Shown here: positions 23,622 through 24,657 of the stretch, in pieces
Layout of the letters: the number at the start of each line of letters is the position of its first letter
Numbering within the stretch: position 1 is the first letter of the stretch
Source: Escherichia phage BEU44
Sequence record: OM632670.1
Strand: one strand, 5' to 3'
Length of the DNA: 64,000 bases
The notes under the pieces: model-generated
What the model was told of the DNA's origin: nothing
Seen by the model: the letters and a program-made list of their open reading frames with translations, nothing else
The model's database searches: none
Made by a program: the position numbers and the translations under genes

Positions 23622-24458
23622 TTATTTCACATTAACGAAAGGTGTAGTAGCCCCAGGAATCATTGTGGTAGGTAATGTACCATTCCACTTATTAATAGCT
23701 TCCAGTTGCATTACATTTGGATTCTCGGTGAGTGCTTCACCACGTAAACGAATAGCATCAGCCTCTGCTTTAGCTTTAATCAGAATAGCATCAGCTACAC
23801 CCTTAGCTTGTTCACGTTCCATATTAGCTTCAGCTACACGTTGTTGAATCTCTTGCTCACGTTGCAGAGTTTTCTGAGTAGCTTCTACTTTGGCATTAAT
23901 GGCACGTTTAACGTTATCAGGGTATTCAGGAGCACCAATCCAGGAGATAGCAATAATATCAATCCCCACTGGTTCCATCTCTTTACGGATTGTGTCAGTG
24001 ACACTATCTAGTAGCTTAGATTTACCACCATCAATAAATGTATCAGTGTTAATCAGGTTACCCTGTCTGTTAAGTACATCAGCAATACGTTGGCGTAAAT
24101 CCTGCTCGGTAATTTCATTAACTCCCTTACGATACGTCTGGAAGATATTAGTTACCTTAGTAGGGTTCACTTTATAGCTGATAGCCATCTGGTGGCCTAT
24201 CTGAGTACCATCAGACAGTTGGAAGTAGAACAGACCATCATAGGTCTTCATCTGCTTAAAGGTTGGGAATGTATAAAGTTCTTCATTCCAAGTGAGCCAG
24301 TAACGGCCTACACCTTTAACCTCATTTTCCACGCCTTTATCTTCACCGAGACGGTTAACGATAATACCTACATTACCTGGTTCAACTCGGTCATAGCAGC
24401 TCGTTAAACTTAGAGCAATGATTAGCCCTGCAATTGCTACTGCAATGTACTTATACAT
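23622..24458 (-). CDS. SPFH/band-7 domain lipoprotein
   Basis: 278 aa; signal peptide with lipobox-like LSLTSC; Ala/Glu/Gln-rich coiled segment typical of SPFH C-terminal region; ATG at 24456-24458 overlaps upstream stop. Confidence 0.55.
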   Translation of the reverse strand: MYKYIAVAIAGLIIALSLTSCYDRVEPGNVGIIVNRLGEDKGVENEVKGVGRYWLTWNEELYTFPTFKQMKTYDGLFYFQLSDGTQIGHQMAISYKVNPTKVTNIFQTYRKGVNEITEQDLRQRIADVLNRQGNLINTDTFIDGGKSKLLDSVTDTIRKEMEPVGIDIIAISWIGAPEYPDNVKRAINAKVEATQKTLQREQEIQQRVAEANMEREQAKGVADAILIKAKAEADAIRLRGEALTENPNVMQLEAINKWNGTLPTTMIPGATTPFVNVK

Positions 24459-24657
24459 GTTTTCTTCTCATCCTTTTCTTAACTGTAAGATAAACGATAC
24501 GGCCTACGATAAGAGGCCACACAATACAGACTATCAAGCCCATAACAACAATGATGCTGTCTAAAGCAGACATCATTGATGGGAGCAAGAAGCCATATAC
24601 AAAGCCTGTAGCAACCAGCAAAATGACTGCCCAGATAAGGTCTAAAAACTTAAACAT
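24451..24657 (-). CDS. small two-helix membrane protein
   Basis: First ATG at 24655-24657 with GGAG SD (longest ORF starts TTG at 24693); two hydrophobic helices; overlaps start of SPFH gene. Confidence 0.45.
   Translation of the reverse strand: MFKFLDLIWAVILLVATGFVYGFLLPSMMSALDSIIVVMGLIVCIVWPLIVGRIVYLTVKKRMRRKHV

Follow-up and report, generated by a model that had tools for sequence, protein, structure and literature searches.

Introduction

Most of the SPFH assemblies with solved structures fence membrane proteases or their substrates: FtsH in the case of HflK/C, the m-AAA protease for the prohibitins and NfeD proteases for stomatin. In E. coli, HflK and HflC build a cage round FtsH (PDB entries 7vhp, 7vhq, 7wi3 and 9cz2), and in the SPFH–NfeD operons (E. 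coli QmcA–YbbJ, PDB entry 8z5g; YqiK–YqiJ; Pyrococcus PH1511–PH1510) the gene directly before the SPFH gene encodes a small membrane protein, and the two are co-transcribed. SPFH genes also occur in phages; a paper of June 2026 on an N4-type phage of the Schitoviridae states that why the gene sits in a phage genome 'remains unclear', and papers on Bruynoghevirus and Kayvirus phages likewise call its role unclear. Here, we describe two overlapping genes, gp19 and gp20, in a stretch of 64,000 nucleotides from Escherichia phage BEU44 (sequence record OM632670.1), which is referred to as the window and supplies the coordinates used below. A preliminary description, made from the sequence alone, had placed a 68-residue two-helix membrane protein (gp19) in overlap with the start of a 278-residue SPFH lipoprotein (gp20). 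On balance we think it probable that gp19 and gp20 form an envelope cassette of two genes, complete in itself, in which a cage-type SPFH scaffold and a hairpin partner fence the inner membrane, perhaps in relation to FtsH.

Identity over the 1.8 kb around gp19–gp20 is 100% to Escherichia phages BEU5, BEU13, BEU14, BEU42 and BEU51 and 98.7% to coliphage N4; the window runs as the reverse complement of the N4 record, and its two open reading frames (ORFs) are N4 genes 19 and 20. RefSeq labels the N4 products 'membrane protein' (gp19) and 'lipoprotein' (gp20), and close relatives label gp20 'SPFH domain-containing protein' or, wrongly, 'serine protease'. The finding itself is therefore not new, as both the genes and the SPFH assignment already stand in public records. 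The modest addition made here is that the 68-residue partner represents a family without a name, whose members accompany this SPFH subfamily in unrelated phages as a cassette of overlapping genes bounded by terminators. In the literature we found no mention of a conserved gp19-type partner of phage SPFH lipoproteins and no paper characterizing N4 gp19 or gp20; the CRISPRi-ART paper and the transposon-mutagenesis preprint mention neither N4 nor SPFH.

Fold and predicted membrane anchor of gp20

On the evidence of its AlphaFold model, gp20 is a member of the SPFH superfamily with the same build as the cage formers HflK/C, prohibitin, stomatin and erlin. Pfam Band_7 (PF01145) matches the sequence with 84 bits (cut-off 23.6, E = 1.7e-23) over profile positions 2–175 of 176, and the phage family phrog_200 'lipoprotein' matches at E = 6.8e-95. 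The model has a mean predicted local distance difference test (pLDDT) score of 77.5, with values above 85 across most of the SPFH core, and consists of strands at the cysteine, the SPFH α/β core, a long helix and a low-confidence segment of the last 30 residues. When the model was compared with the PDB using Foldseek, HflC/HflK, prohibitins 1 and 2, stomatin and erlins 1 and 2 came out on top (E = 5e-13 to 1e-11, probability 1.00); the top 35 matches are all SPFH cage proteins, with entries of these four kinds extending to 1e-9, and flotillin and QmcA–YbbJ (rank 36), both likewise at probability 1.00, and the major vault protein follow lower down. A profile of 13 gp20-family members detected prohibitin-2, HflK and HflC among the PDB sequences at E values of 4e-4 to 7e-3. 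The preliminary description had named a missing SPFH fold as the result that would tell against it; profile search and structure prediction both found the fold. NCBIfam gave only sub-threshold HflC and Rad50 noise, with a score of 19.6 bits for TIGR01932 (hflC; cut-off 134.4) and no HflK match.

The coiled Ala/Glu/Gln-rich tail that had been noted from the letters is a single helix in the model (Table 1). Judging from the model, it is the counterpart of the coiled-coil wall of the SPFH cages, and the region aligns to prohibitin-2, HflK and HflC. The C-terminal 30 or so residues are conserved but modeled with low confidence (pLDDT < 50 for residues 251–263 and 271–278 in the monomer) and could be a cap or closure region. 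Many records of gp20 homologues carry the 'serine protease' label; neither sequence nor model gives any sign of a protease, and the label is apparently a carry-over from the naming 'membrane protease subunit, stomatin/prohibitin homologue'.

The N-terminus of gp20, MYKYIAVAIAGLIIALSLTSC, contains the lipobox, and its features suggest that the protein is exported and lipidated at Cys21, in keeping with the lipoprotein of the preliminary description. In the model, the first β-strand begins with Cys21 itself, leaving no linker. In N4, the residues at positions +2 and +3 after the lipobox cysteine are Tyr and Asp. Among 120 close cluster representatives, about 56 have C|Y[E/D/Q] (the N4 lineage), about 51 have C|D and about 12 have lost the cysteine (GYD); as read from their sequences, the last can only be signal-anchored. 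Asp at +2 is the Lol-avoidance signal of E. coli, and hydrophilic residues at +3 impaired, in one case that was tested, the entry of RcsF into LolCDE (PMC9595528). The inner membrane is the likelier home of gp20, because of the homologues with Asp at +2 or without the cysteine, the hydrophilic +3 residue, the inner-membrane partner and the absence of a linker after the cysteine.

The two-helix partner gp19

The ATG of gp19 at 24657 agrees with the annotated gene, and the protein is identical to N4 gp19; a longer, 80-residue version from a TTG start was rejected, as it would cross the upstream terminator hairpin and misfits the homologues. Hydrophobic stretches span residues ∼8–25 and 35–58, and the AlphaFold model contains helices at residues 4–29 and 34–67, in keeping with the two-helix protein first described. 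Between the helices lies a conserved acidic turn, LPSMMSALD, which is predicted to be periplasmic, and the C-terminal tail has a net charge of +6 and the basic sequence KKRMRRKHV. Both ends of gp19 are probably cytoplasmic (N-in/C-in), given this tail and the mildly basic N-termini of relatives, in which case the conserved turn would be the only periplasmic surface. Tyr21, Pro26, Ser30, Gly40 and Pro48 are invariant in the family, and three of the five are located in or beside the inter-helix turn.

gp19 matches the phage protein family phrog_1130 (E = 2.7e-20), whose members are stand-alone proteins of 56–100 residues. With both proteins matching phage protein families, the pair exceeds by far what chance would produce. 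Searching with the single sequence gave only two clusters, since short hydrophobic proteins defeat the word index, and a profile was used instead; it found 194 clusters, and an exhaustive search yielded 275 representatives at 50% identity among 1.84 billion. No Pfam family matches gp19 above threshold, NfeD gives no match even at E values up to 0.1 and none of the 120 relatives listed carries any Pfam domain. The closest approach to a holin is Phage_holin_3_6, below threshold at 14.3 bits (cut-off 28.4, E = 0.044). With no holin-family match above threshold and a gene outside the lysis cassette, gp19 does not qualify as a holin or antiholin; in N4 the late arm encodes the holins, gp62 and gp63. 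A gp19-profile match of 911 residues with 12 stretches looks spurious and was discarded.

Gene overlap and terminators

The two genes overlap by 8 nucleotides, so that gp20 initiates within the final codons of gp19 (Table 1). Only AGGA/GAGAAG, poorly spaced, precedes the gp20 ATG, which fits a dependence on translation of the upstream gene, and the arrangement suggests that gp20 translation is coupled to that of gp19. The strong terminator that had been said to close the pair bears out: the hairpin after gp20 folds with −14.3 kcal/mol (z = −4.16), and none of 200 shuffled sequences is as stable. A second intrinsic terminator, after gp18, insulates the pair from the upstream gene (−13.6 kcal/mol, z = −3.08). 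An internal gp19 hairpin (24497–24522) and a small hairpin over the gp20 start were no better than shuffled sequence and were set aside.

Hairpin-plus-T-run terminators recur on the minus strand of the window between 23586 and 26034, after gp16 (26009–26034), gp17 (25076–25094), gp18 and gp20, and the scan returned nine terminator-like sites where 2.1 were expected; each accessory gene or pair is therefore an insulated unit. The T-runs of these terminators end in TTTA or TTGA just before the next gene. These ends might double as N4 middle promoters, whose consensus is AT-rich.

A conserved mobile cassette

Profiles of the gp19 and gp20 families were scanned over all fetched loci. A gp19-profile ORF lies directly upstream on the same strand in 93 of 95 gp20-profile genes, a count that overstates the independent cases because many of the loci are near-duplicates. 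The spacing is an overlap or a gap of at most 3 nucleotides in 92 of the 93 loci with a partner: −20 (35 loci), −16, −8 (nine), −4 (two), −1 (two) and +3 (43), with +171 nucleotides in a single locus. At least five phage backbones that are unrelated to one another share the pairing, and on these sequence comparisons gp19–gp20 is a conserved mobile cassette. The backbones are N4-like phages of several genera, SSU5-like phage-plasmids, P1/P7-like elements in Salmonella, lambdoid prophages including an Stx2a phage (with the gene between cI and xis–int) and rV5-like phages, in which a 54-residue ORF is inserted between the two genes. One SSU5-like carrier is a Yersinia pestis contig, which accounts for an old annotation note reading 'similar to Yersinia pestis protein'.

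Close gp20 homologues (62–83% identity) lie on contigs of ∼75 kb (N4-like) and ∼110 kb and on enterobacterial chromosomes. In an SSU5-like phage-plasmid, a 66-residue two-helix ORF with 40% identity to gp19 over the core ends 3 nucleotides before the SPFH gene. More distant relatives from Sutterella and Luteibacter (44–47% identity) have a two-helix partner with a related LP.LIS-type turn, in a 4-nucleotide overlap or 9 nucleotides upstream. Relatives of gp20 occur in 702 of 50,697 phage records (∼1.4%), with hosts that include Staphylococcus, Pseudomonas, Caulobacter, Burkholderia and Bacteroides (crAss-like phages). Phage G7C, a close relative of N4, contains no homologue of gp19 or gp20 anywhere in its genome; the cassette is therefore accessory rather than core.

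The SSU5-like cassette (locus L003, 4709–4767 and 5850–5867) is built like a moron, with a terminator, a σ70-like promoter (TTGAAA-17-TATCAT), the two genes and a terminator. Expression of the cassette from the plasmid-prophage is conceivable; the promoter match does not exceed what chance would give (two found, 2.6 expected). In one variant (P0074) the gp19-type and SPFH frames are fused into a 347-residue product by the loss of one base in an A7 run just after the SPFH ATG (L117 1674–1760 and L118 237–323, compared with L054 2960–3040). It occurs in two assemblies, an NCBI genome and an independent read-archive assembly, with the SPFH start site intact, and could be a real variant or homopolymer slippage. 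As proof of contact between gp19 and gp20 the fusion was not accepted, since it stems from a single base loss, and it was taken as weak evidence; there is no other gp19–SPFH fusion among the best 150 matches of the exhaustive profile search. A mixed alignment built on the fusion was also discarded, as divergent small proteins were misaligned onto the SPFH region.

A 69 kb contig, JANQNF010000027.1 ('MAG: archaeon isolate PL23a_bin.95'), carries homologues of gp17, gp18, gp19 and gp20 in the N4 order and is almost certainly from an N4-like phage, mis-binned into an archaeal genome. An endosymbiont copy of the gp20 type is a pseudogene. The DNA upstream of the SPFH gene in chromosomal copies from Shigella flexneri and E. 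coli (L105 and L106, 2600–2998) is IS1 InsA-like sequence. In P1/P7-like Salmonella elements a Tad2-like gene (PF11195, the anti-Thoeris family) is located ∼700 bp downstream of the cassette (L093 7730–8305; L117 3229–3804).

Table 1. Features of the gp19–gp20 locus, in window coordinates
Feature	Position	Strand	Description
gp19	24451..24657	minus	68 residues, stop codon included; ATG at 24657; predicted N-in/C-in two-helix inner-membrane protein
gp19 Shine–Dalgarno sequence	24663..24666	minus	GGAG, 5 nucleotides before the ATG; from sequence
Overlap of gp19 end and gp20 start	24451..24458	minus	8 nucleotides, ATGTATAA; gp20 start codon inside the last gp19 codons
gp20	23622..24458	minus	278-residue SPFH/Band-7 lipoprotein precursor, stop codon included
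gp20 signal peptide and lipobox	24396..24458	minus	Residues 1–21; LTSC; predicted lipidated Cys21; mature N-terminus C-Y-D
SPFH (Band_7) domain	23829..24389	minus	Residues 24–210; Pfam envelope; model strands E21–25 and E29–35 onward
Long Ala/Glu/Gln-rich helix	23724..23918	minus	Residues 181–245; 43% A+E+Q; one 65-residue model helix
gp20 C-terminal segment	23625..23723	minus	Residues 246–278; NP..M.LEAINKWNG.LP..M.PG...PF...K; invariant columns in family alignment
Intrinsic terminator after gp20	23586..23615	minus	Hairpin 23593–23615, 9 bp stem, then T-run
Intrinsic terminator after gp18	24669..24691	minus	Hairpin 24675–24691; 12 nucleotides upstream of the gp19 start

Genomic neighborhood

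In N4 the pair is flanked on one side by the phage RNA polymerase II genes, the decoration protein gp17 and gp18, and on the other by gp21–gp25. gp18 (24732–25046, minus strand) is a strong member of Pfam PF17420, the P22 'Superinfection exclusion gene product 17' (E = 2.4e-56); a linkage of this gene with the cassette was considered and rejected, as they occur together only in N4 and one other N4-like contig. Downstream of the pair, within 22806–23559 on the minus strand, lie gp21 (74 residues, Cys/His-rich, with a sub-threshold zf-UBP match at E = 1e-3), gp22 (an HNH endonuclease) and gp23 (a hydrophobic protein of 56 residues). In other N4-like phages the gp22-type HNH gene sits upstream rather than downstream of the cassette, and for this reason a homing endonuclease may have helped to move the gp19–gp20 region. 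A recent transfer into N4 was set aside as being without signal, the guanine-plus-cytosine content of the cassette (0.408) being equal to that of the window (0.412). In G7C (L099 9129–9826 and 13358–13618), three unrelated small ORFs replace gp18–gp23 between gp17 and gp24, and a T4 Imm-like 'immunity to superinfection' membrane protein, gp27.1, is encoded a few kilobases further on. Envelope and exclusion genes are exchanged for one another in this stretch of N4-type genomes.

Proposed role of the cassette

In the sequence of events that we propose, gp20 would be exported and lipidated at Cys21 and would then assemble into a ring or cage resembling that of HflK/C. gp19, made in step with it by way of the overlap, would dock by its periplasmic turn to the rim of the gp20 assembly and so give the lipid-anchored scaffold a transmembrane footing. 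Synthesis of the pair probably precedes the late phase; its place is among accessory genes that follow the genes of the phage RNA polymerase II on one and the same strand. Its transcript class was assigned from this position because a review of the N4 RNA polymerases gave no usable middle-promoter consensus. The assembled proteins would fence off a patch of inner membrane. Their purpose, the weakest step of the proposal, may be to regulate whether a conserved membrane machine of the host can reach membrane proteins in the infected cell, and family precedent makes the quality-control protease FtsH the best candidate. The breadth of the family and the 62–65% identity between phages with unrelated entry machinery point to a conserved host partner or to strict constraints on self-assembly, not to a phage-specific target.

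The preliminary description had put forward control of host membrane proteases, superinfection exclusion and lysis timing as possible roles in a phage. Fencing of an FtsH-type protease, which agrees best with the habits of the SPFH family and with the broad distribution, is favored over superinfection exclusion, and lysis timing is disfavored. The link to FtsH would follow by analogy with the solved assemblies.

Several points weigh against this proposal. Lipidation, localization, oligomerization and contact between gp19 and gp20 are all predictions, and the N4 expression timing is deduced from position. gp20 fails the HflC equivalog model and is encoded by a single gene rather than a K/C pair, so that FtsH enters by precedent only. 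The redundancy of the surveyed loci tells in the same direction, as does the absence of the gp19-type partner from some carriers: Pseudomonas phage Clew-1, Caulobacter phage phiCbK and Staphylococcus phage K encode small membrane proteins of other kinds upstream of the SPFH gene, and the Shigella flexneri and E. coli chromosomal copies have no partner ORF next to an intact SPFH gene. Finally, the Tyr at +2 in the N4 lineage, in place of Asp, is compatible with sorting to the outer membrane.

A broader view, that gp19–gp20 is the founding example of a widespread, horizontally traded membrane-fencing device of phages, strikes us as rather doubtful. The cage would then capture or shut out a host machine such as FtsH or, alternatively, shield the membrane from abortive-infection effectors or incoming phage DNA. 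If true, the device would be a common, unrecognized route of envelope takeover in more than 1% of sequenced phages.

Alternative explanations

Of the alternatives to protease fencing, superinfection exclusion at the envelope holds up best and is still unlikely. An early pair would alter the inner membrane or periplasm so that, as with T4 Imm and Sp, a second phage could not pass its DNA or ejection proteins across, or a gp20 sorted to the outer membrane could block a receptor from inside in the manner of T5 Llp. Such a role is consistent with the presence of envelope proteins among pre-late accessory genes beside gp18, of the P22 gp17 type, with the differing syntenic region of G7C, which has a T4 Imm-like gene nearby instead, and with the σ70-like promoter between the terminator and the small ORF of the SSU5-like cassette, which could allow expression in the carrier state. 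The promoter match, however, does not exceed chance, and gp18 is not linked to the cassette beyond N4 and one N4-like contig. Exclusion proteins normally fit one entry route, whereas the proteins considered here are 62–65% identical in N4-like, SSU5-like, P1-like and lambdoid phages. These four groups use different receptors, which argues against receptor-specific blocking, although not against a generic inner-membrane block. The lambdoid copy, moreover, sits between cI and int, a region of lambdoid prophages that forms the early leftward operon and is kept off by the prophage repressor. PADLOC, searched at E values up to 0.1, contains no family for gp18, gp19 or gp20, which also counts against exclusion.

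Maintenance of the membrane, or counter-defense, seems to us quite unlikely. The scaffold would steady the inner membrane, and with it the proton-motive force, through an infection that is long and high in yield, as flotillin-like and PspA-linked SPFH proteins do, or would protect the membrane from abortive-infection effectors that attack it. Among bacterial SPFH proteins there are links to membrane-stress systems (for example, B. subtilis YdjI with PspA), and the wide host range of the carriers fits a generic membrane role. Neighbors of counter-defense type, the P22 gp17-like gp18 in N4 and the Tad2-like gene in the P1/P7-like elements, point the same way, but the neighbors are not conserved, gp18 joining the pair in only one further N4-like contig. 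Characterized stress-linked SPFH proteins face the cytoplasm, whereas gp20 is predicted to be exported.

Lysis timing is improbable. Here, the pair would restrain the N4 pinholin gp63 or the signal-anchor-release (SAR) endolysin gp61 at the inner membrane and add to the long lysis inhibition of the phage. The preprint by Awuah et al. reports lysis inhibition for N4 and allows it for Shigella N4-like phages, and a correlation over three phages is in line with the idea: N4 and Moo19 carry the pair, and G7C has neither the pair nor lysis inhibition. The shape of gp19, with two helices and a basic tail, is that of a holin or antiholin, and in Kayvirus the endolysin gene and tgl enclose the SPFH gene mbpS together with mbpV, a small membrane gene of holin-like character. 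Yet the holin match of gp19 stays below threshold, the pair is far from the lysis cassette in the other transcription arm, and most carriers of the family are not known for lysis inhibition. Mutants also tell against the idea: in a published selection of over 60 spontaneous rapid-lysis mutants of N4, the alleles fell in gp63, gp61, gp50 and the terminal repeat, and the running text mentions none in gp19 or gp20. This weighs against lysis timing because 1 kb of non-essential coding sequence would be a large target.

Sorting of gp20 by Lol to the outer membrane, with a change of surface or vesicles (lysogenic conversion) and gp19 serving only for export or being unrelated, draws on the Tyr at +2 in the N4 lineage and on the prophage-encoded HflK/C-like PM0222 of Pasteurella multocida, a protein of outer-membrane vesicles whose deletion altered capsule, serum sensitivity and virulence and which is likened to gp20 by its description. 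This alternative is highly improbable: the partner can only reside in the inner membrane, and its pairing with gp20 is tightly conserved; Asp stands at +2 in half of the close homologues, and ∼10% of them lack a lipidation site; no flexible linker follows the cysteine; and a virulent phage gains little from conversion.

Significance

Candidates for phage therapy, such as Kayvirus, N4-like and Pseudomonas phages, are among the carriers of SPFH genes. As a model, N4 is tractable; its gene pair is clean, terminator-bounded, non-essential and recurrent in unrelated phages, which makes it a good place in which to learn the function of a phage SPFH scaffold. A target such as FtsH or another conserved membrane machine would add a general route by which phages take over the host envelope; if there is no phenotype, gp19–gp20 would be an ordinary accessory gene pair. 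The finding is real and experimentally approachable, but as it stands it is unsurprising to a specialist.

Comparison with known systems

The HflK/HflC cage provides the best or near-best fold matches of gp20, together with weak sequence matches. The SPFH domain of gp20 is predicted to lie on the periplasmic side of the inner membrane, as in HflK/HflC, and the order of parts (anchor, SPFH1/2, long helix and C-terminal closure segment) is the same. The differences are that N4 has a single SPFH gene, in the window as in every related locus examined, instead of the tandem K/C pair; that gp20 has a predicted lipid anchor in place of an N-terminal transmembrane helix; that the identity is 15–20%, with the HflC model at 19.6 against 134.4 bits; and that HflK/HflC lacks the dedicated 68-residue hairpin partner of gp20.

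The likeness to bacterial membrane-protein/SPFH operons that had been proposed holds for the gene order and the overlap. It does not extend to gp19 itself, which belongs to no Pfam family and has no NfeD (PF01957)/OB domain, being too short for one at 68 residues. gp20 is predicted to be exported, whereas QmcA and YqiK face the cytoplasm.

Among phages, the MbpV–MbpS pair of Kayvirus (Staphylococcus phage K) shares the arrangement of an SPFH gene directly downstream of, and abutting, a small membrane-protein gene, and MbpS is 25–30% identical to gp20. It differs in its Gram-positive host, in the transmembrane helix that anchors MbpS and in its location inside the lysis region; MbpV has one helix and 102 residues and is not detected by the gp19 profile. 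Other phage SPFH lipoproteins (phrog_200; the phiCbK 'band 7 lipoprotein'; Schitoviridae phage GIB1) belong to the same family as gp20 and show no difference in kind. T4 Imm, T4 Sp and T5 Llp are likewise small membrane, periplasmic or lipoprotein products that are made early by virulent phages. They have no relation in sequence or fold to gp19 or gp20 and are lineage-specific, whereas gp20 is conserved at 62–65% across unrelated phage types.

By analogy, the pair would be functionally most like HflK/C and is arranged like the SPFH–NfeD operons. It is a member of neither the HflK/C family nor the SPFH–NfeD class, because the defining features of both were looked for and are lacking in gp19 and gp20.

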